In this document: positions 1 through 37,528 of the stretch, piece by piece | Numbering within the stretch: the first letter of the stretch is position 1 | Layout of the letters: every line of letters starts with the position of its first letter | Assembly: GCA_964563025.1 (NCBI GenBank) | Contig: CAZLVK010000003.1 | Location: 84,061 to 148,060 of the forward strand | Direction: 5' to 3' | From: an uncultured Bacteroidaceae bacterium | Lineage (GTDB): Bacteria > Bacillota > Clostridia > Christensenellales > CAG-917 | DNA length: 64,000 nucleotides | The notes under the pieces: generated by a model | Database searches by the model: none | What the model was told of the DNA's origin: nothing | Seen by the model: the letters and a program-made list of their open reading frames with translations, nothing else | Translations under genes and position numbers: made by a program

Positions 1-129
1 CAGAGGAGTGCATTAGCACGACGTAGGAATCTCGCGGAAGCGAAACGACAGTTTAAGTCGTTGCGGTACCTTTCCAGGAGATTCCCACGCTTCGCTCGGA
101 ATGACAATATGGGTGCGGGTGTCCCGCCC
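1..129. repeat. Composite hairpin repeat: module X (1-51, cut by window edge), module Y (69-111), GC hairpin (111-129)
   Basis: X and Y recur at 37418-37528. Y plus the GGGTGCGGGTGTCCCGCCC hairpin recurs inverted at 51595-51663, and Y recurs inverted at 39894-39937. Stems differ between copies by compensatory changes. Confidence 0.7.
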
Positions 130-221
130 TTAAAAGGGGACGCGGTCACGAAGTGACCCTTGGGGGCAACTCATGCATGGTTTTGATGCTTGCCGTCAAA
201 ACTTGCCCCGTCCCCAAGTAG

Positions 222-254
222 AAAAACGATGCGAGGTTTCCGCATCGTTTTTTT
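222..254 (-). terminator. Rho-independent terminator after the ATPase gene (bidirectional shape)
   Basis: Stem acgatgcg/cgcatcgt, 7-nt loop, A-run on one side and T-run on the other. It starts 10 nt past the stop codon at 264. Confidence 0.75.
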
Positions 255-263
255 GCAAGCAAT

Positions 264-1493
264 CTAAAACTTCTCGTTGTTGCAGATGAACTCAGTCAAA
301 TTCATATGCTTGACTCCGCTACGCTTTTGCAACAAATAGTCCGTTGTTATCAAATACTTCGGATAATTGTCTCTGATGGATTCAAGCGGACGATATTCGC
401 GTTCCTCGGTTTCATTGCTTTGCGCTATCGTATACGCAACTTGAATATAGGCATATTGCATATCCGCCCCGCGAACGATAAAGTCACACTCGAATTTTCC
501 AAATCTCCCGACACTGACGTAATAATCCAATGATTTCGCATATGTGTATACTATGTTCTCAAGCACAGGACCATAGTTGATTTTGTTGTCGGTGTTCTCG
601 GCAAAGTAGAAACTCAAATCCGCAAGATAATACTTCTTCTCCCCCGACAGCGACCGCTTCGATTTCATATCGAATCGAGGACATTCGTACAAAATCTTTG
701 CGTCTATCAATGACTTTACGTATCGTGCAACGGTGGCTTTGCTAATCACTACTCCATTCTTATGCAAAGCGTCGCATATGCTGTTGAGGCTCGTTGTTGC
801 GCCAAAGTTGTTTATCACGTATCTCCTAATGACCTCAAACGTATCTTTGTTCTTGATTTTCAGGCGTTTGCGTATGTCCTTTTCAAAAATTTCGGAGACG
901 ACGCCTTGTACGTAACGCCTTTTGTCCGCCATATCATCAAACTGTATTGCGCGAGGAAACCCACCCTCGAGGATATAGTTCGTCAACTCAATCGCCGTAT
1001 TGGGATTGATTTCTTTTCCATAAAAACGCTTCATTCCCTCATATTCTTCAAAACTCAACGGAAAAATTTCAAATTCAATGTATCGTCCCGTCAGTTTGGT
1101 GACCAATTCCCCACTCAAAAGATACGAGTTCGAGCCCGTAATGAATATCGACCAATCTCCGTCCGTTCTAAATCCGTTTACGACTTCTTCAAAACCGCTG
1201 ACGTTCTGGACTTCGTCAATGAATAAATACTTCTTTTCTTGCGTCGCAGACTTCGACATAATCAATTCTTCCAGTTGAGACGCCGTTTTTACGTTCCTAT
1301 ATTCGCGTTTGTCAAGGTCGAGATATATAATATTCTCTTCAGACACTCCCGATGCCTTCAACTCATCGGCTATCATCTGCATCAGGCTCGATTTCCCGGA
1401 ACGCCGAACTCCCGTTATAACCTTAATAATATCGTCCGCATGGTAGAAACCACGAATTTTCGTCAAATAATTTTCTCTAACATATAAACTCAT
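264..1493 (-). CDS. AAA+ ATPase with C-terminal DUF4143-like region (COG1373 type)
   Basis: Walker A GVRRSGKSS and Walker B LFIDEVQ, with the overall layout of AAA_14+DUF4143 proteins. Start moved to ATG 1493 (MSLYVREN), which has an AAGGAG RBS 8 nt upstream. Confidence 0.8.
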   Translation of the reverse strand: MSLYVRENYLTKIRGFYHADDIIKVITGVRRSGKSSLMQMIADELKASGVSEENIIYLDLDKREYRNVKTASQLEELIMSKSATQEKKYLFIDEVQNVSGFEEVVNGFRTDGDWSIFITGSNSYLLSGELVTKLTGRYIEFEIFPLSFEEYEGMKRFYGKEINPNTAIELTNYILEGGFPRAIQFDDMADKRRYVQGVVSEIFEKDIRKRLKIKNKDTFEVIRRYVINNFGATTSLNSICDALHKNGVVISKATVARYVKSLIDAKILYECPRFDMKSKRSLSGEKKYYLADLSFYFAENTDNKINYGPVLENIVYTYAKSLDYYVSVGRFGKFECDFIVRGADMQYAYIQVAYTIAQSNETEEREYRPLESIRDNYPKYLITTDYLLQKRSGVKHMNLTEFICNNEKF

Positions 1494-1542
1494 ACGAAAG
1501 TCTCCTTTGATAATAAAATAGCAAAACAACCTCGAAATGTCA

Positions 1543-1591
1543 AGTTATCGTTACCGATTTTGTCATTTTTGCAAAATCGGTAACGATAACT
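1543..1591. repeat. Perfect 20-bp inverted repeat with 9-nt loop
   Basis: agttatcgttaccgattttg / caaaatcggtaacgataact, read directly. It lies 50 nt upstream of the ATPase start codon. Confidence 0.9.
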
Positions 1592-1610
1592 GCCATTTTA
1601 GGCGCCACTA

Positions 1611-1702
1611 AACTTGCCGTTAGGCAAATATAACTTCGGCAAAGCCGAAATATCACTGCCGTAGGCAATATCACTTTTTGCCAACGGCAAAAAATATCAC
1701 TC
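1611..1702 (+). repeat. AATAT[A/C]AC-core hairpin array (locus 1)
   Basis: Core aatataact/aatatcact alternates with short perfect hairpins: TGCC-gtta-GGCA, TCGGC-aaa-GCCGA, GCC-gta-GGC, TTTTGCC-aac-GGCAAAA. Confidence 0.8.
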
Positions 1703-1704
1703 TC

Positions 1705-1734
1705 AAAAAAAACGATGCGAGGTTTTCGCATCGT
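1705..1734 (-). terminator. Rho-independent terminator ending the MoxR-vWA operon
   Basis: The stem acgatgcg/cgcatcgt is identical to the 222-254 terminator and the loop differs by 1 nt. On the minus strand it is followed by a run of 7-8 T. Confidence 0.85.
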
Positions 1735-1742
1735 TTTGTGAG

Positions 1743-3950
1743 TTATTCATCTTCGGATTCGGCGACGTACATTATCGCACGCTCTTTTCCGCTTCCGAAG
1801 CCCGTAGGACTTGCAAGCACAAGTTTGTACGCTTCGTTCATTTCTATCGCCATACCGAGGCTCGCGCCGTCTACGTGGGTGGACACTATCGCTTTATATT
1901 CCTCGTTATAGGTCACTTTCAGCACTTCGTAGGAATCGTTCTTCCAAACGGTCGCCAATATCTCTCCGTCCTTTTCCTCGAACTCCACCCTTGCGGTGAA
2001 CTTCTTCATCGTTGCGGTGTACTCCCCTGTCATGAGTTCGGTCACCGACGGCGCCGAATTGACGGTTATCGTGACCGTTGCAACAACCGTTTTCATAAGC
2101 ACGGAGCGCATTTCGACAACGTATACGCCCGCCGTATCCGCCACAAAGCGCACGCTGTCGCTGTCCGCAATGGGCGCAACAGAAGCCGTCGCACCTTCGG
2201 GAGAACTCGTTATCTTGGCAATGTACGTTGCGTCGACGTAATCCTTTTTGTCATCGCTGACTCCCGCTCTCATCGTCAAGGATTGCCCTTCGTACACTTC
2301 CGCCGTCATCGTTTTTTTCGACGACTTCTTCCACGAGTAACCGACGTCCGAATATTCGTACACTTCGGGATAAAGCACGCTGGGCGAGGAATACTCTGCA
2401 TAAAGCGTAATCGTCTTCTCGCATCCGCTCTCGGTCAAGAACAGCAAACGAATATAGCCCGCGACTTTTGACCTTATGAAATACGAACTGTCTGTCCACA
2501 CCGGGTTGCTCGTCGTACCCGAGGACGTCAGCAAATACTTCCTACCGTCGTCCATAAGACGATAAACGCTCACCGGATCGTAGACGAAATCTCCCGTGGC
2601 GGAATCTACGTCTTTGAGACTCAACTGTATGCCGTAATTTCCGCCTCCAGTCGGGAAGGAAACCGTGTTTTCGTCCTTCTCGTCGGTGACGGGATAATAT
2701 TCTTTGTCGTTTGTGTTGTAGTAATATACCGTGAAGTCCGAAACCTTGAACGCAGACTCGGTGTATTCGTGCTCGGGCTCGTCGGGATAGTCCGCAATAA
2801 GTTCCTGCTTATACTCGACGACTTCGTTGTAGGTGGGATTCCCCGTCGCATTAGCCGTCGTTTCGTTCGTGTTGGGATTGAAAGACACCTCGAATTCGTC
2901 GTAGGAGTCCGTCGTCATTATGATGTATTTGATTGCGCCGCTGTCCGTCAGCATAAACCTGCAATTTATCTTGGCATAATATTGAGGTACGCTGTAATAG
3001 CCGAAACTGAACCAGTAGACCGTTTCGCCGTTCGGATTGATGATTTTTCCGCTCGTATCTTCCACTTCGGAGGTGGATTTGCCTTCCTTGAAGTCGTAGT
3101 TGGTGTTCTTCTTGCCCCAAATATAGGCGTTGTAGAGCAAACCCTCCGCACCGTAGAAGTCTTTGTCTATGCGGGATACCCTATAATGGAAACCGTTGAG
3201 GTCATACGTCGTTACTGCATACTTGATGATCTCCGTCCCGCTCGAATAAGAATATCTCGACACGCCGTACACCTCTCCGTCGTCGGTCAGAGATACCCAT
3301 ATGTCTTGCATCTCTCCCGCATTGTAGGAGTGCATATAGTCAACGCCGTATTCGTAATTGAAGGACGCATAGTTGTGTTCTCCGGGACTGTTCCAGCCGA
3401 TGTCGTAGACTCCGCTACCCTTTCTTATCAAGTCCTTGTTGGACGAGCCGAGCAATACCGCATCCTCGACGGATTCGGGATCGAATTCCTTCTTGGGAAT
3501 CGCTACCGTGAAAGATACGTTGCCGTATTCGCTCGCAATGACCGCCGACAACTGACCTTCGCTGACAACGGTCGGCTCTTTGTAAATTTCGTATTCCTCG
3601 TAGCCCGCGCCGTTTTGAGTCAATTTGGGCAGAGTTATCGTCTGCTTATGCTCCGCGTTTTCACGGCATACTCTCGTAAGTTCGCCTTTGCCGTCGCGGT
3701 AGAAGGACGGAGCGACGGTGACTTCCCATTCTCCCCATACGTGATTGTCCTGAACGGTTGCGATAGGTCTCTCGACGACCTCTCCGCAATCCACGCACGA
3801 GCCTCTCTCGACGCCCTCCGTGGTGCACGTAGGCTCTTGCACCGTCTTCCATCTCAATATTTCGTGCTCTTCGTTACACGCCGTCAGCAACGTCGCCAAA
3901 AGGAGTACGAGAACTGCCACGCTTATTATCAATAATCTGTTTCTTTTCAT
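1743..3950 (-). CDS. Large secreted lipoprotein, unknown family (735 aa)
   Basis: RBS aggaggagga before ATG 3950. Signal peptide plus lipobox LLTAC. Cys/His-rich N-terminal module (CTTEG..C..CG...H.W). Last gene of the operon. Confidence 0.75.
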   Translation of the reverse strand: MKRNRLLIISVAVLVLLLATLLTACNEEHEILRWKTVQEPTCTTEGVERGSCVDCGEVVERPIATVQDNHVWGEWEVTVAPSFYRDGKGELTRVCRENAEHKQTITLPKLTQNGAGYEEYEIYKEPTVVSEGQLSAVIASEYGNVSFTVAIPKKEFDPESVEDAVLLGSSNKDLIRKGSGVYDIGWNSPGEHNYASFNYEYGVDYMHSYNAGEMQDIWVSLTDDGEVYGVSRYSYSSGTEIIKYAVTTYDLNGFHYRVSRIDKDFYGAEGLLYNAYIWGKKNTNYDFKEGKSTSEVEDTSGKIINPNGETVYWFSFGYYSVPQYYAKINCRFMLTDSGAIKYIIMTTDSYDEFEVSFNPNTNETTANATGNPTYNEVVEYKQELIADYPDEPEHEYTESAFKVSDFTVYYYNTNDKEYYPVTDEKDENTVSFPTGGGNYGIQLSLKDVDSATGDFVYDPVSVYRLMDDGRKYLLTSSGTTSNPVWTDSSYFIRSKVAGYIRLLFLTESGCEKTITLYAEYSSPSVLYPEVYEYSDVGYSWKKSSKKTMTAEVYEGQSLTMRAGVSDDKKDYVDATYIAKITSSPEGATASVAPIADSDSVRFVADTAGVYVVEMRSVLMKTVVATVTITVNSAPSVTELMTGEYTATMKKFTARVEFEEKDGEILATVWKNDSYEVLKVTYNEEYKAIVSTHVDGASLGMAIEMNEAYKLVLASPTGFGSGKERAIMYVAESEDE

Positions 3951-3962
3951 TCTCCTCCTCCT

Positions 3963-5456
3963 TTATTTGAACACTAAGCATGCGAACAGCCATTGGTTTT
4001 TCTCGGACGACATAAATATTAAATTGCCGTCCATGTCGTATTCCGCTATGCCTTGGCCGTCTTTGAAAAGCATGCTCGAAGTGCTATACCGTTGCAGGAA
4101 AAGTTTCAATTCGGCTGTCACGGGATAGTAGCCGTCTTCTGCATAACTTGCATATTTCTCTATGAAAGATACATAGTTATAATATTTTACGTTGCCTTCG
4201 TCGTCCGTGCCTTTGATTGTTCTCGGCTTGTTCAGCGGGTGCATAAATCCGCCCGAACCGACGGGAGACGCAGATTCGTTTTCACTCGTGTCGATGACGA
4301 GATTATCCCTTGAAATCGTTGCGTAAAGCATCTTTCTCACGCCGTTTTCCATCACGTAATAGTAGTCGAGGTCGGCGTCGTAGAGGATATTGCTGTCATC
4401 GAGTAGTCCGCTATAACTGCCGTAATAGCCATAGTACGTGTAAGGCTTGTCCTTCTCCGATGCAGACTCGGACGGATCATATTTCGCGTAAGCGGCGTTT
4501 AGGTCGTTGAACGCTATGCTCGCAAGTGCGTCGAAATCGTGCGTCGATTCGACTTCTTCGGTCTCAACCGAACTGCTTCCGCCCGAAAACTCTCCGTCTC
4601 GTTCGAGGAGGAAGTCGACGTATATCGGGAACACGTTCTTATCGAGCGTGGTCGCATATATGTGGAAACAATATCGGTTGCCTATTTTCTCGCCTGCGAT
4701 TTGCGCTTCCCAACGGAAGTTCTTCGTGTAAGTGTTCTCCTCACCGCCGCCTCTGACTTCTTCGTCGGGGTCATCGTAATTCACGTATCCGCCTGCATTC
4801 GCGGCGTGCTGGTCGAGCAACGGATTGAGTTTGTTCGCGGTGACGTCAATCATCGATTCGAGAGAATAGTTGCCCGCATACGTAGGTATGAAAGAGAACC
4901 ACAAACCGTTTTCATAATTATCTTTGGTGAGGACCGCTCTGTACGCACCCGTGGTCGAAATCTTGAAACTGTCGATTCCTGTCAAACCCGTCGCGGTGGG
5001 ATTGTTCACCTCGCACAACTTGAAGAGTTTGATTTCAACGTTCTTGTCCTTCGACTCGGAGTTCACGTAGTAAATATTGGGATTATAGGTGTAGCCCTCG
5101 GGAATTTTGGACAACGTGACCCTATAGTCGCCGTCGAGTCCCGTAACCGTTGCCACACCGTTTTTGTCGAAATTTGCCGAATAATAAGCGCCGTTTCCGC
5201 TCTCGACGTCCGTCCAAATCGCCTTCACGTCTACGAGATACGCCTTGGGCAGAGTTACGCTGAGAGTGACGGTATATGCGTCGTCGGGCGAACCGCTGCC
5301 GCTCGAACCTTGGTCTACGCCGGTATTCCCGGCATTACCGCTCCCCGTTACGTCGTCGGTGGCGGGATTATAATTGCACGCAACCATAAGTACGGTAAGG
5401 ACGAAAATAATCACCGCAACCAAAATCTTTTTCAATTTTCCGTCTGCAATTCTCAT
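3963..5456 (-). CDS. Secreted lipoprotein, unknown family (497 aa)
   Basis: The ORF track starts at 5567, but that overlaps the upstream gene. ATG 5456 (MRIADGKLKK) has a GGAAGGAAG RBS and gives a signal peptide plus lipobox LMVAC. Confidence 0.75.
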   Translation of the reverse strand: MRIADGKLKKILVAVIIFVLTVLMVACNYNPATDDVTGSGNAGNTGVDQGSSGSGSPDDAYTVTLSVTLPKAYLVDVKAIWTDVESGNGAYYSANFDKNGVATVTGLDGDYRVTLSKIPEGYTYNPNIYYVNSESKDKNVEIKLFKLCEVNNPTATGLTGIDSFKISTTGAYRAVLTKDNYENGLWFSFIPTYAGNYSLESMIDVTANKLNPLLDQHAANAGGYVNYDDPDEEVRGGGEENTYTKNFRWEAQIAGEKIGNRYCFHIYATTLDKNVFPIYVDFLLERDGEFSGGSSSVETEEVESTHDFDALASIAFNDLNAAYAKYDPSESASEKDKPYTYYGYYGSYSGLLDDSNILYDADLDYYYVMENGVRKMLYATISRDNLVIDTSENESASPVGSGGFMHPLNKPRTIKGTDDEGNVKYYNYVSFIEKYASYAEDGYYPVTAELKLFLQRYSTSSMLFKDGQGIAEYDMDGNLIFMSSEKNQWLFACLVFK

Positions 5457-5457
5457 A

Positions 5458-8172
5458 TTACTTCCTTCCTTTGCCGAAGAGGCTTCGTATGTCTTCCCAC
5501 TTAATCTTGCGCACGATGACGTCCGCGACGAACAGCACCACCGCGATGATGAGAAGAACAAGTGCAAGATTGACCACGTAACTCGAAATCATACTCTCGT
5601 CGTTTTCAATCTTGATGAGATCGTCCTCGTTCATTACCGTGCCCTCGGAGCCTATCATCTTGTGAAGTACCGCTTCGTCGTAAACGGCGAAACTGTCGTA
5701 TTCGGGCAGATATGACACGTAGTAGGTATAGTTTGCGGAGTACGATTCTCTCCCCGGCGCGACGTAGTCGATGACGACTTCGTATTTGCCGAGGTTATAG
5801 GTCGCGAAACTATACTTGTAGCAAGACGTCACAAAGGTCATATCGGTTTCTACGGTCACTCTCTCAGCATTTTCGGTTTCGCCGGGAGAGGTCAACTTAA
5901 TCCTGACGCTTGCGTCGCTCGACACTTTCGAGGGGGTCACGACAAGGTTGATATAGCCGTCCTCGTCGACGGTTTCGAGAGTGAACGGATAGTTTGCTTT
6001 TTCGGCGGGAATATTCGTCGAAAGAAGATTCTCGAGGAAAGGTTCTCTCAGTCGCGAATTATCCCATTCCTTAATATTCGACAGCGAAGTCGCAAGAGAC
6101 GCTACCCTACCGCTACCGTAATTCCAATAGCCGTAAAGCGGAAGCGTCGTCTCGGTGTTGCCGTTGTCGTAAAGAAGGGAAAGCACCGTCGTCGTGCCGG
6201 ATTTTGCTTTGTTGTATATAAATCCGGTGACGTAGTCGCTGGAGACGAATTCCACTCCCGTCAAAGCGGAGTCGGTGGAACGCGTAACCACTACGTTCGC
6301 GTTGTCGTTTATTACCACTTCGGTAAGGTCGTCGATGATGCCGTCGCCGAATACCGCGTCGTTAAGTCCCGCGAGCGTGTTCACGAAAGTGTATTTGCCC
6401 TCGCCCTTTGACGCAATCTCTTTAAGCAGGGCCTCTGCGTCCAATGCCGTTTGCGAGGTATCCGCTCCTCTGCCGACGTCGATAACGGACGTGGAAATAC
6501 GCTTTTTCTTCATGTTTTCCAAGATTTCGATAATCTTAGTTTCTTCGCTCGTTCCGTCTCCTCCGACGTTTTCTACAGTCATACCGTCGCTTATCAGCAT
6601 AACTTGTTTCTCGTTTTGAGGCATTTTTACAATTCTGTTGTACGCCTCTTTCAAGCCCATACTGATTACCGTACCGTGTTCGAGTCCGATATTGTCTATG
6701 GCGTTGAGTGCTTCTTGACGGGAGGAATTTTGTTGTCCCTCCTTCTTCTCGTCGGATATTTCTTTGGCGGAGAATACGATGCGGAAGTCTCCGTTGAAAG
6801 AAACGATGCACAAATTATCTCCTACGCTGAGTTTGGAAACGAGTTGCTTGCTTACCGCCTTTGCAATATCGAATTTTGAAGTGTCGAGCATACTCAGCGA
6901 CGCGTCGACGACTATCGTATACAATTTGGAATCCTTGTCCGTATTGCCGTATCTGAAAGGCAACATACTTGCAAGCGCGTCGAGGTCTTCGTTGTCCTGC
7001 GTATAAACGTTGCCGTAGGTCACGAGACTCTTTCCGAATTTGGAAACGACGGTATTGAGATTGTCGAGCAATAGCGTGTAGTTGCTCACTTTTGTGAGAT
7101 CGACGTCGCTTAATACGATTTCATCGTAACCGCACAACTCCTCTATCGTCAACGGTACGTCGTCCGTAGGCGCGAACGCCGTTACGGTTGCTTTGCCCGA
7201 ATATCTCTCTTCGAGGTTGTACGTATCCTCTTCGCTTTCGGAAATCAAAAGTACATTCACGGAATCCGAAACCGTTTGAGAGAAGGTTGCGTTATTGTTG
7301 AATTGGTTTTCGTCTCCCTCTGCGTTGACGACGACTTCGTATTCAAACGAGCCTTTCACATCGGTTGCGAGGTCGAAAGATACCGTATTATTACCTTTTT
7401 CAAGATTGAGAACTTTATCCGCAATTTTCAAATTTCCTTTATACAAGGACACGGTAGCCTTCGTTTCAAAACTACTGCGAACGGTGACGATTGCCTCTTC
7501 GGATTTGCCGAAATAGGTGTTCCCTGTGGCTGAAACCGCCATCATCTGCACTTCTTTTGCATCCGCGGAAATATTATTGTCGATATAGACGGCGTCGACG
7601 AAAATATTTTCCGAGCGCAATTCGTCTACCGCTCTCTTGAGTGCGTTGGAATCCTTGACGTGCGTTTGCTTTCCGTCCGTCATAAGAACAATCCTCTTTA
7701 TGACTCCGTCTTTGAACAAACCGCTTGCGTAGTCGAGCGCACCCTCTATGTCCGTTTCACCGGTATCGAGCAAATCGGTATCCGCCGCCTTTACGCTCTT
7801 GACGGACTTGCCGAGAGGAACGAGAAGTTGCTGGTCCTTTGCAAAGCAAACTATACCGAGTTTGGAGTTTTTGGGAAGATTTGCTTCGAGTTCTTCGATA
7901 TAATTATCAATCGTGTCGAGGTTCTTTTCGGAGGAATAGGAAACGTCCGCGAGTACATATACGTCGGTTTCGGTAACCGTGGTTTCCACCGTCGTCCCCG
8001 CAAGCGCGAAAGCAAGGCACAGCCCCATGAGAACGTGCAAAACTCCCGACGCGATATTGTGCGCGTTGGCGTTGTCCTTTTTGACAGCCAAAAAGAACGG
8101 TACTGCGAGCAATACCGCGATGGGAATCGCGATTAACAACAGATAGGCGTTATCGAAGTTGATACTGCTCAT
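5458..8172 (-). CDS. Membrane protein with two vWA domains (BatB-like), 904 aa
   Basis: Two N-terminal TM helices and one C-terminal TM helix. Two MIDAS-type motif sets: DVSYS...TDIEGAL...MTDG and DASLS...GTVISMGL...ISDG. Overlaps the upstream gene by 23 nt. Confidence 0.8.
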   Translation of the reverse strand: MSSINFDNAYLLLIAIPIAVLLAVPFFLAVKKDNANAHNIASGVLHVLMGLCLAFALAGTTVETTVTETDVYVLADVSYSSEKNLDTIDNYIEELEANLPKNSKLGIVCFAKDQQLLVPLGKSVKSVKAADTDLLDTGETDIEGALDYASGLFKDGVIKRIVLMTDGKQTHVKDSNALKRAVDELRSENIFVDAVYIDNNISADAKEVQMMAVSATGNTYFGKSEEAIVTVRSSFETKATVSLYKGNLKIADKVLNLEKGNNTVSFDLATDVKGSFEYEVVVNAEGDENQFNNNATFSQTVSDSVNVLLISESEEDTYNLEERYSGKATVTAFAPTDDVPLTIEELCGYDEIVLSDVDLTKVSNYTLLLDNLNTVVSKFGKSLVTYGNVYTQDNEDLDALASMLPFRYGNTDKDSKLYTIVVDASLSMLDTSKFDIAKAVSKQLVSKLSVGDNLCIVSFNGDFRIVFSAKEISDEKKEGQQNSSRQEALNAIDNIGLEHGTVISMGLKEAYNRIVKMPQNEKQVMLISDGMTVENVGGDGTSEETKIIEILENMKKKRISTSVIDVGRGADTSQTALDAEALLKEIASKGEGKYTFVNTLAGLNDAVFGDGIIDDLTEVVINDNANVVVTRSTDSALTGVEFVSSDYVTGFIYNKAKSGTTTVLSLLYDNGNTETTLPLYGYWNYGSGRVASLATSLSNIKEWDNSRLREPFLENLLSTNIPAEKANYPFTLETVDEDGYINLVVTPSKVSSDASVRIKLTSPGETENAERVTVETDMTFVTSCYKYSFATYNLGKYEVVIDYVAPGRESYSANYTYYVSYLPEYDSFAVYDEAVLHKMIGSEGTVMNEDDLIKIENDESMISSYVVNLALVLLIIAVVLFVADVIVRKIKWEDIRSLFGKGRK

Positions 8173-10075
8173 AACAATACACCATCCAATCCGCGAGGAA
8201 AATCACGGCAAGAACTATAAACAAGGCGAGTAGATTGTCGTAAACGCCGTCACGACCTCCGCCGACTGCGGTTCCCGTTATCGAGAACGTTTCCGCTTGT
8301 GCTATCGTCGCACTCTCCGAGTACGGCATTTCGGAATACATATACAAAGTGCGTTCCGCGACGTTGTTTCCGCTACCAACGCGAATTTTTATCGTATACA
8401 AACCGACTTCTTCGAGGGTATACGTACATTCCGAAGACTCCGTGGAAAGGTATTCCTCTTCTCCCGACGGAGTTACGAGCATAAGGCTTTGCGTGTTTGA
8501 AAGCACGTTCAGCGTGACTATGTCCCCGCAAAAATAGTTCGAGTCGTCGATGACTTGCGGGAACGTGTATCTCAAAAGGTTGTCGAACAGTTTGATATAG
8601 TTATACGTGAGAGGTACGTCCGAGTCGTTGAGGCTGAACGCAAACACCACTTCTCTGTTGTTGTAGCCGTTGCTACCCGCAAACACTACGGGATTGCCTT
8701 CGCAAGTGAGCACGGTATAGAAATCCGCGCTTTGGCTGTATCTCGTATATTTGGTCAAATACATAACCTCGTCGGTATTCAAGCCTTCGAGGAGTTTTTT
8801 CGCCTCGGTTTTTGAAGACGTGCCGTAACCGAGTGTTTTCTCGGAATGGTCTCCCGAGTCCGTCTGATATGCAAATCCCGAGTTGGGAACGGTTTTTTCC
8901 GGAGCGAAGAACCACACCGCACCGCCCGACGGCATTTCTTCGGGTGCAAAGCCGTCGAATACGTACAAGCCGTAACTAATTCCCGTGGCGGCGGCCTTGT
9001 CGTAATCCTCGGGTGCCATAACCTCTATCTGTCTATGACCGAGTGCCGTCAACATGGATTTCAGGAAGAACGGCTTTTCGCTGACGATGAGGGTATCGAA
9101 CGAAGTGTCGTGCTTGACGTTGTAAACGATGATTTCGTTGTCCGCGCTTATAGCGTCCTCTTTTTCGATGACGACTCTGACCGATTGATAATCGCCGACG
9201 GAATCGCATTCCACCGTGTAATCGGTGCCGTTTTTGAGGGTATCGTCCGCAAGCGCATCCGACGAAACGTTCACTTTGTCCGCCGTCTTTGCGACCGAAA
9301 CCGTATTGCGTCCCGCGGGATTTTCGCTATCGTCCACGTAGACTAAGACCTTCACGTCGCCGTCCGCGCCGTATGCCGCGATCTTGCCCGTGACTATCAA
9401 TTTGGAATCTTGAATTTTGCAATCCGCACTCAAAAGCGCATAATTGACTTCGCTCGTCGCGACGTTGACTATTTCCACGTTGTCGTGCACGTCGTAGTCG
9501 CAATCGGTCATGAAGTAGATTTTTGAAGAGGGGATTTCGTCGAAATACTCTTGTGCGCTCGAAAGTGCTGTTTCAAAGTCCGCCTGCGCTCCCGAAATCT
9601 CCGCATCGGCAAGTAGTTTGACCGCTTGTTCTTTGTCCTTGACGTCGCGATAAACGACGGAAGACGGCTCCCCTGCGCAAATAAGCGTATAGGTGCTACC
9701 GTTTTCGGAGTCGAGAATGATATTTTCGATATTCTTTTTCGCTCTGTCGAAACGGGATTCTCCGTTCGTGACGGCGGACATACTTCCGGACGCGTCGAGA
9801 ACGAAACAATAGTCGTTCGCTTTGCCCGGCAAAGCAATCGTCGGGTGCGCTATCGCAACGGATATGCAAACGACCGCCAAAATTTGCAAAACGAGACTTA
9901 TCCAATTTTGCAATTTGTTTATGGGGTTTTTACGCTTCAGGAATTTTTCGCTGAGCGTCCATATATAAGTAGACGTAACCGTCTGTTCGGTATATTTGTT
10001 TTTGATGATATAGATGATTATCAAGACGGGTACGCCGATGAGTCCCAACAATCCGAGAGGATATAACAAGTTCAT
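8150..10075 (-). CDS. BatA-like vWA membrane protein (aerotolerance-regulator N-terminal type), 641 aa
   Basis: N-terminus MNLLYPLGLLGLIGVPVLIIIYII resembles the BatA_N double-TM region. MIDAS motif DASGS. C-terminal TM helix. ATGA start/stop overlap with the DUF58 gene. Confidence 0.8.
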   Translation of the reverse strand: MNLLYPLGLLGLIGVPVLIIIYIIKNKYTEQTVTSTYIWTLSEKFLKRKNPINKLQNWISLVLQILAVVCISVAIAHPTIALPGKANDYCFVLDASGSMSAVTNGESRFDRAKKNIENIILDSENGSTYTLICAGEPSSVVYRDVKDKEQAVKLLADAEISGAQADFETALSSAQEYFDEIPSSKIYFMTDCDYDVHDNVEIVNVATSEVNYALLSADCKIQDSKLIVTGKIAAYGADGDVKVLVYVDDSENPAGRNTVSVAKTADKVNVSSDALADDTLKNGTDYTVECDSVGDYQSVRVVIEKEDAISADNEIIVYNVKHDTSFDTLIVSEKPFFLKSMLTALGHRQIEVMAPEDYDKAAATGISYGLYVFDGFAPEEMPSGGAVWFFAPEKTVPNSGFAYQTDSGDHSEKTLGYGTSSKTEAKKLLEGLNTDEVMYLTKYTRYSQSADFYTVLTCEGNPVVFAGSNGYNNREVVFAFSLNDSDVPLTYNYIKLFDNLLRYTFPQVIDDSNYFCGDIVTLNVLSNTQSLMLVTPSGEEEYLSTESSECTYTLEEVGLYTIKIRVGSGNNVAERTLYMYSEMPYSESATIAQAETFSITGTAVGGGRDGVYDNLLALFIVLAVIFLADWMVYCYEQYQLR

Positions 10076-10956
10076 TTCAGCACCCCCATGTCCGTAAGCG
10101 TTTCAAAGAATACCTTGCCCACGGAGTCCTCGTCGGACACGAGCAAATAGTCCGCTCCCCTTGCGTTGCAGAAGTCCTTAATTCTCGTCTGCACGTAATC
10201 GAGAGCCGCTTTGTACGCGTTGATAACGTCTCTATTGATATTTTTGCGATAATATTTGTTCAAATTTTCGGAGTCGAAGAGGTGCATTTTGCCTCTGACT
10301 TTCGGGTTGAGTTCTTCTGTAGACAAAACTTGCACGCAAAGGACGTCCCTCTTTTTCGAGATGATATAGTCAAGTCCCGCCTCGTAATCGTTGTCGGTGA
10401 GGAAGTCGGAAATGACGACGGACATACCGTTGCCGAAACCGACTTTCGTAGGCAAAATCGCTTCGCTGAAACTGCTGTCGCGGTCAAATTCTATATCGTT
10501 GAGTTTGCCTATCGAATTGAGATAGGACTCCTTCCCCGCCATATTGACCACGACTTCTTCCACGCTCGTACCGTGCACCGCGTATATGGAGACCTTGTCC
10601 ATTGCGATAATCGAGAGATAGGCAAGAACGGCTGCAATTTTGAGGGCTTGTTCCGCCTTATGCGCCTTGCCGAAATCCATAGATCTGCTTGCGTCGATAT
10701 AGATGACGGTGTGAAGTCTGCGTTCGTCGAGGTATTGCTTGGTGTAAAGTTTGTCAAAGCGCGCGAAAGCGTTCCAATCTATCTTGGTAACGTCGTCGCC
10801 GGGCATATATTCTCTGAAATCGGCAAATTCACAAGAGGAGCCGAAGGTCTTGCTCTTGTGATTTCCGCCGAACATGCCGGCAACGTTATTTTTTACGAGT
10901 ATCTCGAGAAGTTCTACCTCTTTGAGGAACTCGTCCGTTATCGCTAATTTGCTCAT
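10072..10956 (-). CDS. DUF58 domain protein
   Basis: Hallmark FREYMPGDDVTKIDWNAFARFDKLYTKQY...IYIDASRSM. It sits immediately downstream of MoxR, as in MoxR-DUF58 operons. Confidence 0.85.
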   Translation of the reverse strand: MSKLAITDEFLKEVELLEILVKNNVAGMFGGNHKSKTFGSSCEFADFREYMPGDDVTKIDWNAFARFDKLYTKQYLDERRLHTVIYIDASRSMDFGKAHKAEQALKIAAVLAYLSIIAMDKVSIYAVHGTSVEEVVVNMAGKESYLNSIGKLNDIEFDRDSSFSEAILPTKVGFGNGMSVVISDFLTDNDYEAGLDYIISKKRDVLCVQVLSTEELNPKVRGKMHLFDSENLNKYYRKNINRDVINAYKAALDYVQTRIKDFCNARGADYLLVSDEDSVGKVFFETLTDMGVLK

Positions 10957-10977
10957 AAAACGCTTCCGATAAAATTT

Positions 10978-11967
10978 TTATTTGCAGAGTTTTTTGTTTT
11001 CTTCCACGAGACGGTCGATGACGTCGTCCACGGTGAGTTTCTCGTTGATTGCTGTATAGTTGATTTTGACTCTGTGTCTGAGGACGGGGTGCGCGAGGGC
11101 ATCTATATCCTCGTAGGACACGTTGTAATTTCCTCTCATCAAGGCTCTGACCTTTGCGCAAGTTATAAGTGCTTGTGCCGCTCTCGGAGACGCGCCGTAT
11201 TTGAGATATTTCTTCGCAACAGCGGACGTGGAATCGAGTTCGGGGTGAGAGTTCGCGACGAGGCTGACCGCATAATGCAATACGTCGTCGATGACGGGCA
11301 TTTGTTTTGCGATTTCTCTCATTTCGAGGACGGTTGCGCCGTCTACGACTGCGTCTGCGTTTTCGTCCATGGTTATTTGCGTCATGTTGACGATGTCTTT
11401 AAGTTCGTCGGTTGACGGGAAACTCATGATGAGTTTGAGCATAAAGCGGTCCATTTGCGCTTCGGGAAGCGGATAGGTGCCGTCTTGTTCGATGGGGTTC
11501 TCGGTTGCAAGCACGAAGAAAGGTTCACTGAGTTCGTAAGTCTTTTTCGCAACGGTGATTTTGTGCTCTTGCATAACCTCGAGCATTGCGGATTGCGTCT
11601 TAGGCGTTGCACGGTTGATTTCGTCCGCAAGCACCAGATTTGCAAATATAGGACCTCTTTGGAACACGGAATTGAGTTTGCCGTTTTCGTCCTTTTCGAT
11701 GACGTTTGTACCCGTTACGTCCGAAGGCATAAGGTCGGGAGTGAACTGGATTCTCGAAAAAGGAAGTCCGAGCGTTTTGCCGAGAGAGCGAACGAGACGA
11801 GTCTTGCCTACTCCGGGAACGCCTTCGAGTAGCACGTTACCGCCCGCGATGATTGCAATGATAACGTTGTCGATAATATCGTCTTGACCGACGACGTCTT
11901 TGTGGAGTTCGTCTCTGATGCGGTTGATGACGCTACTGAATTCCTTTACTTTCACTTCGTTTTCCAT
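10978..11967 (-). CDS. MoxR-family AAA+ ATPase
   Basis: Walker A GVPGVGKT, Walker B LADEINR, and ATENPIEQDGTYPLPEAQMDRF, which is typical of the AAA_3/MoxR family. GGAGA RBS. Confidence 0.9.
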   Translation of the reverse strand: MENEVKVKEFSSVINRIRDELHKDVVGQDDIIDNVIIAIIAGGNVLLEGVPGVGKTRLVRSLGKTLGLPFSRIQFTPDLMPSDVTGTNVIEKDENGKLNSVFQRGPIFANLVLADEINRATPKTQSAMLEVMQEHKITVAKKTYELSEPFFVLATENPIEQDGTYPLPEAQMDRFMLKLIMSFPSTDELKDIVNMTQITMDENADAVVDGATVLEMREIAKQMPVIDDVLHYAVSLVANSHPELDSTSAVAKKYLKYGASPRAAQALITCAKVRALMRGNYNVSYEDIDALAHPVLRHRVKINYTAINEKLTVDDVIDRLVEENKKLCK

Positions 11968-12006
11968 GTTTATATCTCCATGCTTTTATTTTTATAATCG
12001 AGACGT

Positions 12007-13521
12007 TCAGTTCTCCCCTTCCGTATTGGAGGCACTGCCGTCGAGAATATCGATATAGTTTTGTATATACACTTTCATTTCCTCGCTCAAACCCGATTCT
12101 TTATCGTTGAGGAGTTCGTTGAGTCTGGCTACGTAATCCGACCATACTTCGCCGTAAGCCACGTGTTCCTTGCTTTCGGGATCGTAGACCGCATCGTCAC
12201 CGCCGTAGATGACGTTGCCGTCGCCGGTACCGCCGCCGTGCATACCGTTGTCGTCGTCGGAGTTGTTACCGCTACTCGAAATACCCGGCAAATCGAGAGT
12301 GGATTGAGTGAGAGTCACGCCGAAAATTTCTTCGAGGGAATTGAAAATCATATCGTTCATCATACGATTGTAGACTTGTTTGACCAAAACCTTGGACGCA
12401 GAAGTCACGAAATCGGTGCATGCATTAGACACGATACTCTTCAAGTCGTCTCTGAACATATATTCGTCCAACACGATGCCGAAAGACGTCGAAAAATCGG
12501 AAAGCGCGGAATACAATTCGTCCCCGCCGAGTTGTTCCTGAACTTCATCCGTTCCCAAGCAATCGTTCAAAGGTTCTACGAAACCTTCTACCGCATCTTT
12601 TATTTCGACCATTTCGGTGAGACTTTTGACTTTTGCGACGAGCGTATTCGTGAAAACGCCGATGGCATCGCGGATTTTGCCTTCCGAAGTCTTCTGCTCC
12701 GTTCTGACCACGCTCAAAGAGTTGATGACGGTATCGCTCTTGTAGGAGTCCGCCGCATTAATCAACGCCGTCGTGAAACTCTTGAGGTCTGCGGAAGTGC
12801 TCATAACTTTGGCGACTTCGCGATAAGAGTTTGCCTCGTTGACCGCCGTATCTATCGCCGTCGCGCAATTCTTGACAGCGGTACGCATACCCGAGTTGGT
12901 TTTAGTATTGCCGAGGTCCTCTTTGAGAAGTTCGAGAGCGGAGACTACGGGAAGCATAACGCGCTCTTCGAGGTCGGAGGCTTGGACGTCCGCAATAAGT
13001 TGGTCGAGGGACTTCAAATCCCATTCGTTGACGACGTACTCGTCGGGGACGACGGGTGCGACGTATCTCGACGGCACGATGACGCCGACAAGGAAAAAGG
13101 ACAAGCCGAGAACGGTTATCACGATATATTGCCAAATCTTTGAGAACTTGATTTTTTGTTTGGGAAGATTTTTGAGGGTTTCTTCGGTATCCGCTCTTTG
13201 AAGATTGAGAATATCCCCGTCCTGCCCCGCAAACTCGACCATAGTCTGAACTTTTTCGTTGAGACCGTATTCACCGTCGAGGAGTTTTGCAAGGGACTTG
13301 TCAGAGTGACGAGTAAGCAAGAAGGTTACGACGAAAGAGACCGCGAACGTGCCGAGGGCTATGACGAGATAGTAATACCACGAAAGATACGCCTCGCCGA
13401 GTTTGAAGCCGAGCATAACCGTACCGACCGCAAACAACGCGAAAAAGACGCCTGCGATAAGGCTCTTCGATATCGCAATCGTCAAATATTTCTTTTTCAG
13501 TTTGAGGAAGGTTTCGGTCAT
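12007..13521 (-). CDS. Membrane protein, unknown function (504 aa), first gene of the MoxR operon
   Basis: Three predicted TM helices in the first ~160 aa, then a long helical-looking and acidic Gly/Asp-rich tail. No family recognised. Confidence 0.7.
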   Translation of the reverse strand: MTETFLKLKKKYLTIAISKSLIAGVFFALFAVGTVMLGFKLGEAYLSWYYYLVIALGTFAVSFVVTFLLTRHSDKSLAKLLDGEYGLNEKVQTMVEFAGQDGDILNLQRADTEETLKNLPKQKIKFSKIWQYIVITVLGLSFFLVGVIVPSRYVAPVVPDEYVVNEWDLKSLDQLIADVQASDLEERVMLPVVSALELLKEDLGNTKTNSGMRTAVKNCATAIDTAVNEANSYREVAKVMSTSADLKSFTTALINAADSYKSDTVINSLSVVRTEQKTSEGKIRDAIGVFTNTLVAKVKSLTEMVEIKDAVEGFVEPLNDCLGTDEVQEQLGGDELYSALSDFSTSFGIVLDEYMFRDDLKSIVSNACTDFVTSASKVLVKQVYNRMMNDMIFNSLEEIFGVTLTQSTLDLPGISSSGNNSDDDNGMHGGGTGDGNVIYGGDDAVYDPESKEHVAYGEVWSDYVARLNELLNDKESGLSEEMKVYIQNYIDILDGSASNTEGEN

Positions 13522-13620
13522 AGCGTTCCGTACTGCACGATTTTGAAAATATGCAATTTCGTTTGAATTATACCGTTCTCAAATGCATAAACGCATAAAA
13601 ATACGGTATTCGTAGTAAAA

Positions 13621-13649
13621 ATTTTACCACACCGAGAATAGTATGTCAA
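13621..13649 (-). promoter_or_regulatory. Candidate sigma-70-type promoter of the MoxR-vWA operon
   Basis: On the minus strand: TTGACA, 17 nt, TAAAAT. About 100 nt upstream of ATG 13521. Confidence 0.5.
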
Positions 13650-13870
13650 ATAATATTTGGGGGTATTCTTCATCTTAAAACAACCGCCGTTTCGAGAGCC
13701 GAAAACCGACGTCTCTGAATGAATAAAAATGCGTGATTTTTCGCATAGCGGGGCCGTCGTCCTCCTATCTTAACACGAGGCAAAAATCCCTAAATAACGC
13801 CGTCGTTTTGTGTCGATTTTTGTCGTATGTCAAAAATCTTGTTTTTGGGAAAACAACCGCTTATACGACG

Positions 13871-13894
13871 AAACCGCCCGTTTATGGGCGGTTT
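13871..13894 (-). terminator. Hairpin downstream of the PI-PLC-like gene (weak terminator)
   Basis: Stem aaaccgccc/gggcggttt. On the minus strand the U-tract is mostly inside the stem. Confidence 0.4.
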
Positions 13895-13932
13895 TCGATG
13901 ACTTTATCCGTCGTTTCGGGAAAATTTGCCGA

Positions 13933-15120
13933 TTACTTCCCGAGAATTTCGTTCACGGTCGCTTGGTTATGTGCGATGATAAGAGCGTTCACGCGGTTGT
14001 TGAAATCACCGTTGTCGCTGTTGCAGAAGTCCACTTGGAATACGGGCATATAGGTGAGCCATCTCTCGAAGTTTTCGTTCTCGATGAGGGACACGTTGTA
14101 GTCCTTTGCAAAGCGAAGCAATGACCAAGAACCGATAATCTCGAAAAACTCTTTCGCGGAGCCTACCGCAAAAGACGCTTGCGTTTGGTTCATACGGAGT
14201 TTGCTTTGATACTTTTCGTCGCTTGCTATTCTGTCGCAAGTTTCGTTGATTTTGCCGATGAGTTTTTCTTCCCCGATACTGCTATGCCATTCGTGGTCCG
14301 CGCAGGAGTCCATATCGTAGCAACGAGAGGTGAGCGCGCTTGTGCCTTCCCAGTCCGCCTCGAACAGTCCTTCTTCTCTTCTATCGAAGATGACGACGCC
14401 GGGAGCGGTACCGTTCTTGGTGAGGTCGTTGTAGGTGAGTTCCCCTATTCTCACACCGCCGTTGCCGTTGTCGAAGGTGTCGGCTTTGTCGATATAGACG
14501 TAGTCGAAAATGGATTTGCCGTTGTAGCGGACGCTGTTCAGAGCGTCGTGGAGTGAGTCGAGAGTGACGCCGTCACCCATATACATAGGTTGGAACAAAA
14601 GTCCGACGATTTCCCCTTTCGCCGCGTCGCTTGCGAGGTATTCGAGGACTTCGAGAATATGATCTGTTAGTTTGCCGGTGAGATGCGCGTGAGTGCCGTA
14701 CCATTCTCCGTCATAGTCGGTGCATTTGATATGGAAAAAGCGCGCGCCTTGCAAAAGTTGCGCTCCGAGACCTACCGCCTGCGTCTTGCCGAAACGATAT
14801 TGAATGCCCGACGAAATGGGATCCACCTTGCCGAGAATGCTGTTTGCGTCGTGATAATCGAGCGGAGTCTCGTCGGTGAGAGTGGACGTGACCGCGTCGT
14901 GAGAGCCGAGCATGGCTATATCCACGTAGCGGGGATTTGCCTCGACTATGCCGTCGATATTGGCAAGGACGGTGGCGTATTTCCCGTTGAGGTTGCCCTC
15001 CCCTACGTTTATCGTGGTGTCGTTGCACACGACCGCAAGGAACATGGTGAAAATCACGACCGGCACGAGAATGCCGATGAAAACTTTGATGCCGTTTTTC
15101 TTGGATTTGTCTTTCTTCAT
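13933..15120 (-). CDS. Membrane-anchored PI-PLC X-domain-like phosphodiesterase
   Basis: N-terminal TM helix. MLGSHDA resembles the PLC X-box HD motif, followed by GARFFHIKC...YGTHAH. GGGAGA RBS. Confidence 0.55.
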   Translation of the reverse strand: MKKDKSKKNGIKVFIGILVPVVIFTMFLAVVCNDTTINVGEGNLNGKYATVLANIDGIVEANPRYVDIAMLGSHDAVTSTLTDETPLDYHDANSILGKVDPISSGIQYRFGKTQAVGLGAQLLQGARFFHIKCTDYDGEWYGTHAHLTGKLTDHILEVLEYLASDAAKGEIVGLLFQPMYMGDGVTLDSLHDALNSVRYNGKSIFDYVYIDKADTFDNGNGGVRIGELTYNDLTKNGTAPGVVIFDRREEGLFEADWEGTSALTSRCYDMDSCADHEWHSSIGEEKLIGKINETCDRIASDEKYQSKLRMNQTQASFAVGSAKEFFEIIGSWSLLRFAKDYNVSLIENENFERWLTYMPVFQVDFCNSDNGDFNNRVNALIIAHNQATVNEILGK

Positions 15121-15142
15121 AATATCTCCCGTTTACCGCAAT

Positions 15143-15171
15143 ATTGTAACATATGTGCATAAATTAGGCAA
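15143..15171 (-). promoter_or_regulatory. Candidate promoter of the PI-PLC-like gene
   Basis: On the minus strand: TTGCCT, 17 nt, TACAAT, with TGT immediately upstream (extended -10). Confidence 0.45.
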
Positions 15172-15193
15172 TAAGAAACCACGCTTTGCGTGG
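15172..15193 (-). terminator. Hairpin ending the giant-adhesin operon (weak terminator)
   Basis: Stem ccacgc/gcgtgg followed on the minus strand by tttcttatt. It is the first hairpin after the stop at 15217. Confidence 0.4.
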
Positions 15194-15216
15194 CGATATG
15201 TAGATAAGTGCAAGTA

Positions 15217-15846
15217 TTACTCAAACGTTATCTTGGTCGAGGACGGAAGCCCTACGTAGGCCTTGAACGTTTCTACGATATTCTCGTCTTTGGTGTTCTT
15301 GGACAACTGCTGATTCGTGCCGAAAGTTATATTGGAGTCCGCGCCGACGATGAACTCGGTCACGGCGTTGCTACCCATAAACGCACCCGCGCCTAAAACG
15401 CACTGCGAACCGCTCTCGAACGTGACGGTAGTCAGTCTCGTCATACCCGAAAACGCACCCGCCTCGATGGACGTTATAGTGTTTGGAACAGTGAGTGTTG
15501 CGGGAATACTCTTGTTCGTCGTGTCCGCATAAAGAGAATTTGACACGGCTCTCACCGTTAGCGATTTGGTAGTGCCGTCTTGTTCGACGTCTATTGATTT
15601 GGGCAGAACGACGTCCTCGATAGCGGCGGCTTGTTTGAAGCCCGTAAGACGAGCACCGTCACTATAAGAGTCGGCGGTCATATACTTTGCGTAGACGTTC
15701 CAATCCGTCACTCCCACCTGCGGAGCGACCGTACTGTCCCCCTCTCCCGACGACCAACGAGAAAGAGTCACGCCGAGCACCGAGCCTAAACATGCAAGGA
15801 GCATAACGGAGACGAGTATTATTAAGATTTTCTTCTTGTTTTTCAT
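15217..15846 (-). CDS. Secreted BspA-type leucine-rich-repeat protein (209 aa)
   Basis: N-terminal signal/anchor helix. The LRR_5-like segment TLTVPNTITSIEAGAFSGMTRLTTVTFESGSQCVLGAGAF. AAGGAA RBS. 9-nt gap to the upstream gene. Confidence 0.7.
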   Translation of the reverse strand: MKNKKKILIILVSVMLLACLGSVLGVTLSRWSSGEGDSTVAPQVGVTDWNVYAKYMTADSYSDGARLTGFKQAAAIEDVVLPKSIDVEQDGTTKSLTVRAVSNSLYADTTNKSIPATLTVPNTITSIEAGAFSGMTRLTTVTFESGSQCVLGAGAFMGSNAVTEFIVGADSNITFGTNQQLSKNTKDENIVETFKAYVGLPSSTKITFE

Positions 15847-15855
15847 ACGCGTTCC

Positions 15856-37396: not shown

Positions 37397-37417
37397 GATT
37401 TGTCCTTTATCGGTTAT

Positions 37418-37528
37418 CCTTTCCAGGAGATTGCCACGCAACTCCGTTGCTCGCAATGACAATATGAGTTTGTCATTCAGAGGAGTACGTTAGTACGACG
37501 AAGGAATCTCCCGGAAGGGAAACGGCAG
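37418..37528. repeat. Composite hairpin repeat (module Y 37418-37466, module X 37472-37528) inside the giant-gene leader
   Basis: Same modules as 1-111 but in the order Y then X. Stem positions co-vary between copies (attGc/gCaat vs attCc/gGaat; gtAc/gTac vs gtGc/gCac; cCc/gGg vs cGc/gCg). Confidence 0.8.

Follow-up and report, generated by a model that had tools for sequence, protein, structure and literature searches.

The stretch of DNA analysed here (hereafter the window) comprises 64,000 nucleotides of contig CAZLVK010000003.1 (assembly GCA_964563025.1, positions 84,061 to 148,060 of the forward strand), from an uncultured bacterium of the Clostridia lineage CAG-917. [quoted passage not shown] Genome comparisons show that all seven genes are strictly co-inherited across two orders of uncultured gut Clostridia, and that the first five form a conserved core which is mostly followed by large lipoproteins of differing families. 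They also show that the segments predicted to face the cytoplasm are the best-conserved parts of mem504, BatA641 and vWA904. Gene order tips the balance, by a little, towards lip497 and lip735 being specific partners or clients of the MoxR/vWA machinery. The operon would then encode a membrane-spanning complex of the MoxR class, resembling the Bat systems, together with its own surface lipoproteins.

The spacers between the seven genes measure, in order, 39, 21, -4, -23, 1 and 12 nt. This spacing suggests one operon and a single transcript, with the following features:

12007-13521, minus strand: gene 1, mem504, open reading frame (ORF) of 504 aa
10978-11967, minus strand: gene 2, MoxR, ORF of 329 aa
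10072-10956, minus strand: gene 3, DUF58, ORF of 294 aa
8150-10075, minus strand: gene 4, BatA641 (BatA-type), ORF of 641 aa
5458-8172, minus strand: gene 5, vWA904 (double-vWA), ORF of 904 aa
3963-5456, minus strand: gene 6, lip497, 497 aa from the ATG preceding the signal peptide (longest ORF, 534 aa)
1743-3950, minus strand: gene 7, lip735, ORF of 735 aa
13621-13649, minus strand: sigma-70-type promoter, TTGACA-17-TG-TAAAAT, with 11 of 12 consensus matches and a TG extension
1705-1737, minus strand: intrinsic terminator (hairpin 1734-1705 followed by U8), with a 12-bp stem and a 5-nt loop, directly past the last stop codon

A consensus scan of positions 1-16000 of the window gave the promoter at 13649-13621 as its top-scoring match; the other minus-strand matches within the operon reach 9 of 12 positions and are at chance level (30 found, 17.4 +/- 4.3 expected). 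The terminator hairpin with its U8 tract was not listed by the consensus scan and has a folding energy of -19.9 kcal/mol (z = -5.7). An earlier reading of the window, made from the letters alone (the sequence-only reading), had described this gene order on the minus strand, these spacers, a single candidate promoter at 13621-13649 and a strong terminator at 1705-1734, all of which were borne out by the ORF, promoter and folding checks.

Co-inheritance of the lipoproteins with the five-gene core

The window belongs to a metagenome-assembled genome (MAG) of 1.97 Mb, which is 71% complete (G000). Co-occurrence of the lipoproteins with the cassette across genomes, which the sequence-only reading had proposed as a check, proved to be all-or-none among 61 relatives: the MoxR clade (at least 78% identity), lip497 and lip735 were found in the same five genomes only (G000, G001, G004, G008 and G043). 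The first four belong to the same genus and have a full-length lip735, while G043 comes from another family, its MoxR being 78% identical and only the N-terminal module of lip735 being matched. In the remaining seven genomes of the genus, the MoxR clade, lip497 and lip735 are all absent together. A sample of 301 genomes of the order contained lip497 in 12 cases. Every one of these 12 encodes a full-length mem504 on the contig and strand of lip497, about 8 kb upstream of it, and none of the 301 has a full-length mem504 but no lip497.

The identical seven-gene order, hereafter type 1, was read in nine further loci, namely in G001, G004, G008, G043, G123, G378 and three metagenome/MAG contigs. 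G378 belongs to a different order of the class, and the lip497 homologues of the three contigs are only 26-38% identical; overall, the conserved order reaches down to about 25% identity. In the nine loci, the genes at the junction between the vWA protein and the first lipoprotein overlap or lie within 15 nt of each other. Loci L026, L027 and part of L021 were left out of the evidence because ORF calling was unreliable there. Slot 7 is the most variable position of the operon. It is filled by full-length lip735 orthologues in G001, G004, G008, G123 and L017, by proteins that share only the N-terminal Cys/His module and parts of the C-terminus in G043 and L019, and by a different Cys/His-rich lipoprotein in L018 and G378.

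Proteins of 340-430 aa in another 17 genomes of the order match mem504 over no more than its ~150 N-terminal residues. These led to a sister arrangement (type 2), read in G034, G253, G302, G137, G119, G236 and G178, in which a membrane protein with this N-terminal module is followed by MoxR, DUF58, BatA and double-vWA genes and then by lipoproteins. The type-2 operon thus has the same five-gene core order, gene-1 N-terminal module, downstream lipoprotein slots and layout of transmembrane (TM) helices and metal ion-dependent adhesion sites (MIDAS) as the window operon. It differs by a shorter and distinct gene-1 ectodomain, by a MoxR that is ~60% identical to that of the window, and by its cargo. 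Its first lipoprotein is a BspA-type LRR_5 (leucine-rich repeat) protein of 925-1045 aa with a Listeria-Bacteroides repeat, and several loci have an additional Flg_new lipoprotein of 1670-1740 aa, a lipobox being found in all the downstream proteins. Pfam searches gave no LRR_5 match in lip497 or lip735, so that the window operon is not of type 2. As the type-2 operon keeps the five-gene core with other lipoprotein families, the lipoprotein slots are exchangeable. Genome G137 carries both a type-1 and a type-2 operon (contigs C28 and C20), an argument for cargo specificity of each core. G278 has a type-1 operon and a second cassette (contigs C3 and C32), the latter without a downstream lipoprotein. 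In G034, a gene on the same strand for an LRR_5 protein of BspA type, at least 2421 aa long (L015 12230-19501), lies directly upstream of the type-2 operon.

Domain architecture of the seven proteins

Gene 2 encodes a cytoplasmic MoxR-type AAA+ ATPase (Pfam AAA_3, E = 2.6e-61; AAA_lid_2, 1.2e-16). Its Walker A (GVPGVGKT at residue 49) and Walker B (LVLADE) motifs are intact and, together with the AAA_3 core and AAA_lid_2, place it in the MoxR-proper (MRP) subfamily; it is 72-95% identical to its type-1 orthologues. The gene 3 product matches DUF58 (2.4e-31) and weakly VWA_2, as a cytoplasmic protein of vWA-like fold with a conserved MIDAS-type motif, DASRS, at residue 88. BatA641 matches the BatA family of Pfam (PF07584, 44.6 bits for a cut-off of 25.9) and of NCBIfam (TIGR02226, 28.2 bits for a cut-off of 23.05), as well as VWA_2. 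Hydropathy places its TM helices at 6-24, 58-76 and 615-633, giving an N-terminal double-TM domain, a vWA domain, an ectodomain of ~380 aa, a C-terminal TM helix and an invariant tail, DWMVYCYEQYQLR. In vWA904, two stretches match VWA_2, with a further match to VWA_3, and the hydropathy TM helices are at 12-30, 40-58 and 869-887; the two helices at its N-terminus are followed by vWA-1, vWA-2 and a distal ectodomain, and the third, C-terminal helix by a basic tail in the cytoplasm. The MIDAS motifs are DASGS at 94 in BatA641, and DVSYS at 76 and DASLS at 423 in vWA904. The MIDAS residues are kept among orthologues in all four vWA-type domains, that of DUF58 included. The TM1-TM2 loop of BatA641 (25-57) is rich in K/R and the C-terminal tail of vWA904 is basic, so that, by the positive-inside rule, the middle parts of both proteins are predicted to lie outside. 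Hydropathy, charge and motifs therefore agree with what had been read from the letters, i.e., two N-terminal TM helices, a C-terminal TM helix and intact MIDAS in both vWA proteins, with middle parts predicted to face outward.

The opening gene, mem504, has three TM helices (21-39, 52-70 and 133-151), the first two of which form an N-terminal hairpin. The loop of ~60 residues at 71-132 is predicted to be cytoplasmic and contains seven invariant residues (D82, L87, T93, M94, Q108, R109 and D111). Past the third helix comes a helical ectodomain of ~265 residues, which a Gly/Asp-rich linker joins to a small module at the C-terminus. Searches of Pfam, NCBIfam and PDB sequences gave no convincing match, and scanning 29 members of the family singly against Pfam gave no consistent match, only TM-helix noise. 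DUF7867 (E = 0.008) was rejected, as it matched 2 of the 29 members only, beside this noise; a resemblance to DUF4175-type proteins was dropped, as no match to them reached E<=1. A profile search of 1.84 billion representatives returned 1773 clusters (50% identity) at E<=1e-3 and 595 at E<=1e-30, and nearly all of the top 150 matches are full-length, at ~500 aa. By these counts, mem504 is a large family of metagenomic proteins (~1800 clusters at 50% identity) without a Pfam model.

Identity to the window in the three other genomes of the genus decreases from the cytoplasmic proteins to the lipoproteins: 93-95% for MoxR, 87-89% for DUF58, 73% for BatA641, 70-71% for vWA904, 60-64% for mem504 and 53-60% for the lipoproteins. 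Within the membrane proteins, the score of a segment is the share of eight type-1 orthologues with the residue of the window protein, averaged over the segment:

BatA641: TM1 0.86; TM1-TM2 loop 0.80; C-terminal tail 0.92; ectodomain 0.45-0.51
vWA904: basic C-terminal tail 0.68; ectodomain beyond vWA-1 0.42-0.48
mem504: loop 71-132 0.57 (its most conserved part); ectodomain 0.31

Both downstream proteins have a signal peptide with a lipobox Cys and are thus predicted, at the sequence level, to be lipidated. The lipobox of lip497 (MVAC, Cys27) is slightly atypical at position -3, and its Cys is invariant in 73 homologues; that of lip735 (LTAC, Cys25) is canonical, with a Cys that is also invariant in its family. 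The sequence-only reading could assign neither protein to any annotated family, and searches of Pfam, NCBIfam and PDB sequences indeed gave no match for either. More generally, the profile and structure-based searches it had suggested yielded no family for the 504-, 497- and 735-aa proteins, and binding-type folds for the modelled structures of the two lipoproteins. At least 126 homologues of lip497 were found, the named ones being "hypothetical protein" entries from Clostridia MAGs and "Candidatus Coproplasma". For lip735, 29 close homologues were found.

The AlphaFold2 (AF2) model of lip497, built from a 73-sequence alignment, has a predicted local distance difference test score (pLDDT) of 88.1. 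It shows an Ig/CarboxypepD_reg-like sandwich (~60-150), a jelly roll with a possible likeness to pre-peptidase C-terminal (PPC) and collagen-binding domains (~160-290) and an alpha/beta C-terminal domain (300-497). Foldseek was run on the whole models of both lipoproteins and gave matches to domains or Ig chains, with low whole-chain TM-scores. The jelly roll matched the ColG collagen-binding domain, the pre-peptidase C-terminal domain and the C-domain of an enterotoxin (CPE), with target-normalised TM-scores of 0.5-0.68 over ~120-140 columns, E values of ~5e-4 to 1e-3 and 8-12% identity, and had no Pfam sequence match. The C-terminal domain had no match in Foldseek on the whole model, and no obvious catalytic set was found among the invariant residues of lip497. 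In the lip735 model (pLDDT 87.9), beta-rich Ig-like domains are strung together behind a Cys/His-rich module; Foldseek matched it to Ig chains of the LigA type, to cadherins, to invasin/intimin and to the S-layer proteins SbsC, EA1 and Sap. The module occupies the first ~80 residues past the lipid anchor, with H29, C42, C52, C55, H70, C95 and H101 invariant. As their folds are binding-type beta domains with no catalytic match, the modelled lip497 and lip735 look like binding or scaffold proteins rather than enzymes.

Relatives of parts of both lipoproteins occur elsewhere. The Cys/His module of lip735 (residues 25-107, window 3640-3880) follows the pattern H..W..PTC..G..C..CG..H..W..C..H. It has no Pfam model and recurs, at times in several copies, in many large Clostridia lipoproteins (L014 12690-16622, L018 11755-15705, L030 10266-12449). 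Paralogues of the C-terminal domain of lip497 are found in lipoproteins of ~600-665 aa in L032 (G305 C6), L033 (G137 C42) and L034 (G043 C14), where they adjoin AhpC/TSA-thioredoxin lipoproteins of 920-1120 aa; L032 has, in addition, an adjoining membrane protein of polyferredoxin (Fer4_5)-redoxin type. These three loci may represent an extracytoplasmic thiol-redox lipoprotein cluster. The genome of the window itself encodes, ~7.4 kb before the window start, an AhpC/TSA-thioredoxin lipoprotein of 1022 aa (L035 7621-10689, G000 C3:73620-76688), with a beta-sandwich at the N-terminus similar to the one in lip497 (33% over 132 residues).

Relation to Bat systems, proposed function and alternatives

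Cassettes of MoxR, DUF58 and BatA/vWA genes are widespread and, to our knowledge, no substrate or mechanism has been established for any of them. The BatI operon of Bacteroides fragilis, bb0170-bb0176 of Borrelia and the bat genes of Leptospira all combine a MoxR AAA+ ATPase, a DUF58 protein, a BatA protein (double-TM plus vWA) and a second membrane vWA protein. The window likewise has an AAA_3 gene beside DUF58 (21 nt apart), a BatA domain with vWA, and a second membrane vWA protein. An outward vWA domain is also shared: predicted in the window operon, it was demonstrated experimentally for the BatA-type protein BB0173 of Borrelia, whose vWA domain is exposed to the periplasm (PMC5700661). 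The function of Bat systems is still debated, and the literature is divided over a role in aerotolerance or oxidative stress (PMC5700661; PMC3557215). The window operon differs in several respects. None of its seven proteins has a TPR or SH3 family match (Pfam, E<=0.01) that would indicate BatC or BatE, and BatD (PF13584) had no match in the whole, 71% complete assembly, the B. thetaiotaomicron control being positive. BatB is far smaller than vWA904, which also differs by its two vWA domains and by a TM helix at its C-terminus. Unannotated proteins stand at both ends of the operon (a 3-TM protein first, two large lipoproteins last), and the host is a monoderm Clostridia lineage. Given the absence of BatC, BatD and BatE, the additional gene 1 and lipoproteins, and the monoderm host, we call the cassette Bat-like rather than a Bat operon.

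Other systems are related more loosely. RL3499-RL3502 of Rhizobium leguminosarum, a locus with an envelope-integrity phenotype that is cited in PMC5700661, shares a MoxR-DUF58-BatA-type core. It is described as four genes, without lipoproteins, in a diderm host. No account of lipoproteins in MoxR/vWA operons of Firmicutes turned up in full-text literature searches; a different system, the TolQ-linked vWA "force transducers" (PMC12204202), was considered and set aside. Two further comparisons are analogies. RavA-ViaA, CbbQ-CbbO and NorQ-NorD each pair a MoxR AAA+ ATPase with a MIDAS-bearing vWA adaptor, and DUF58 would be the candidate for such a cytoplasmic adaptor in the window. Their clients are cytoplasmic or membrane enzymes, whereas the candidate clients here are extracytoplasmic lipoproteins reached via membrane proteins. 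The integrins offer a membrane-anchored, outward vWA/MIDAS domain (the I-domain), short conserved cytoplasmic tails and control from inside to outside; this is pure analogy, no homology being claimed past the vWA fold, and switching in the window cassette is a proposal.

The sequence-only reading had taken both lipoproteins for candidate clients or partners of the vWA/MoxR machinery. What supports this is comparative genomics: the all-or-none presence in 61 relatives, the 12/12 linkage, the nine loci, the tight junctions and the sister operon. On this basis, a mechanism can be sketched. The MoxR hexamer, with DUF58 as its vWA-like cytoplasmic adaptor, would act on mem504 through loop 71-132, on BatA641 through the TM1-TM2 loop and C-terminal tail, and on vWA904 through the basic tail, all of them conserved and predicted to be cytoplasmic. 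Remodelling inside the cell, driven by ATP, would then assemble the outward ectodomains or switch their state. The three extracytoplasmic MIDAS sites would bind acidic residues of lip497 and lip735, and this would mature the lipoproteins, hold them or present them at the cell surface. In the end, the system would probably bind a ligand or surface outside the cell (adhesion or capture) rather than act as a catalyst. In its full form, this inside-out model for monoderm gut bacteria is a speculation that we consider doubtful: MoxR and DUF58 would serve as an ATP-driven cytoplasmic motor that works on the near-invariant loops and tails of transmembrane vWA receptors and so switches them, and outward MIDAS would capture, release or activate interchangeable lipoprotein cargo, of PPC/Ig and Cys/His type in the window and of LRR/Flg_new type in the sister operons. 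If it were true, the Bat/MoxR-DUF58 cassettes, now 25 years old, would gain a general function as energised holders of surface lipoproteins.

Several points weigh against a partnership between the lipoproteins and the cassette. The case for it consists of gene linkage and predicted structure, co-transcription is deduced from spacing, and the topology of the membrane proteins is a prediction. Related cassettes in two genomes (G278 C32 and G037) have no downstream lipoprotein gene, so that the core can exist without linked cargo. As the MAG is 71% complete, further partners may be missing. No residue that could act as MIDAS ligand was identified on lip497 or lip735. We know of no Bat-like system in which a cytoplasmic AAA+ ATPase has been shown to act across the membrane. 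Finally, deletion of bat genes in Leptospira gave no phenotype (PMC3557215).

Following the aerotolerance idea attached to Bat systems, the machine could serve extracytoplasmic redox or metal maintenance and keep surface proteins reduced or metal-loaded, with lip735 as a client needing metal insertion or thiol protection and lip497 as an accessory of a surface redox system. Maturation of metal centres is the classical task of MoxR/vWA pairs (NorQ/NorD, CoxD/E, chelatases), and the invariant four-Cys/three-His module directly past the lipid anchor of lip735, like the Cys/His-rich segment that opens every slot-7 lipoprotein examined, would fit such a role. The AhpC/TSA-thioredoxin lipoproteins beside the lip497 C-domain paralogues in G305, G137 and G043, the polyferredoxin-redoxin protein of G305 and the giant AhpC-TSA lipoprotein that is the divergent neighbour of the type-1 locus L019 point the same way. 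However, this redoxin neighbourhood is that of the paralogues and not the operon's own, Pfam finds no redox or metal-handling domain in the seven proteins, BatC, BatD and BatE are absent, the LRR and Flg_new lipoproteins of type 2 have no such modules, and the bat deletion in Leptospira caused no oxidative-stress phenotype (PMC3557215). We regard this explanation as unlikely. It is quite improbable, in our view, that lip497 and lip735 are ordinary surface lipoproteins which share a transcript with the cassette without interacting with it. Large lipoprotein genes are very frequent in these small genomes, two related cassettes lack them downstream, and the interaction itself is put forward from genome comparison; nevertheless, mere hitch-hiking is at odds with 12/12 linkage in a fixed order, with junctions within ~15 nt or overlapping, at protein identities down to 25-35%. 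Also, the type-2 operon fills the same two slots with lipoproteins, and genomes with two cassettes keep their cargo sets separate.

The cassette might instead be an accessory of the giant-adhesin operon, serving the 6609-aa adhesin (17633-37462) rather than its own lipoproteins. The giant-adhesin gene run ends at 15217 on the same strand, so that the distance of about 1.7 kb given by the sequence-only reading was correct. The shared envelope role it had suggested for the two operons found no support in synteny: the neighbourhood is retained in G004 and G008 only, and is absent in G001, which is of the same genus, in G043, G123 and G378, and in the three metagenome loci. Proximity, retention in these two genomes and the type-2 operon of G034 abutting its large LRR_5 protein speak for the accessory role; a separate gene with its own promoter and terminator stands between the two operons, and the absence of the neighbourhood elsewhere counts further against it. 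We consider it very improbable. Scarcely credible is a ternary MoxR-vWA conflict or defence system (Kaur et al. 2020). What defines such systems is effector domains together with a third core component, which may be VMAP, iSTAND, FtsH or a vWA-fused beta-propeller (PMC7159879). The bpMoxR model of Pfam does match the ATPase (58 bits), but AAA_3 scores far higher (205 bits), no VMAP, iSTAND, FtsH, beta-propeller third component or effector domain was found in the seven proteins with Pfam, and no PADLOC-style architecture was seen, though the PADLOC library itself was not searched.

Among these explanations, we favour lip497 and lip735 as partners or clients of the MoxR/vWA machinery. The window and type-2 operons provide co-inherited, extracellular candidate partners for a cassette that has long gone unexplained and, as the partner slots are exchangeable while the cytoplasm-facing parts are nearly invariant, the question of the partners becomes directly testable. 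The operon also brings three unannotated protein families, those of mem504, lip497 and lip735, and operons of the MoxR/vWA-lipoprotein kind may be major surface-interaction determinants of uncultured, small-genome gut Clostridia.

Surrounding genes

The last ORF of the giant-adhesin run (15217-15846, 209 aa) has a weak LRR_5 match (E = 1e-5, below cut-off). In G043, the three genes directly upstream of the seven-gene operon (L014 86-2411) look like spoIIGA, sigE and sigG by reading of their translations alone, a context that is not common to the other loci.

On the other side of the operon, the terminator hairpin (1708-1737) has a direct copy at 222-251, 97% identical and 1486 nt apart. The two copies flank a gene for an AAA_14/DUF4143 ATPase at 264-1529, and each could terminate transcription in both directions because it has runs of A on one side and runs of T on the other. 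A possible operator lies just upstream of the ATPase gene and beside its promoter-like site (1543-1515): an inverted repeat (1543-1591) whose 20-nt arms match perfectly across a 9-nt spacer.

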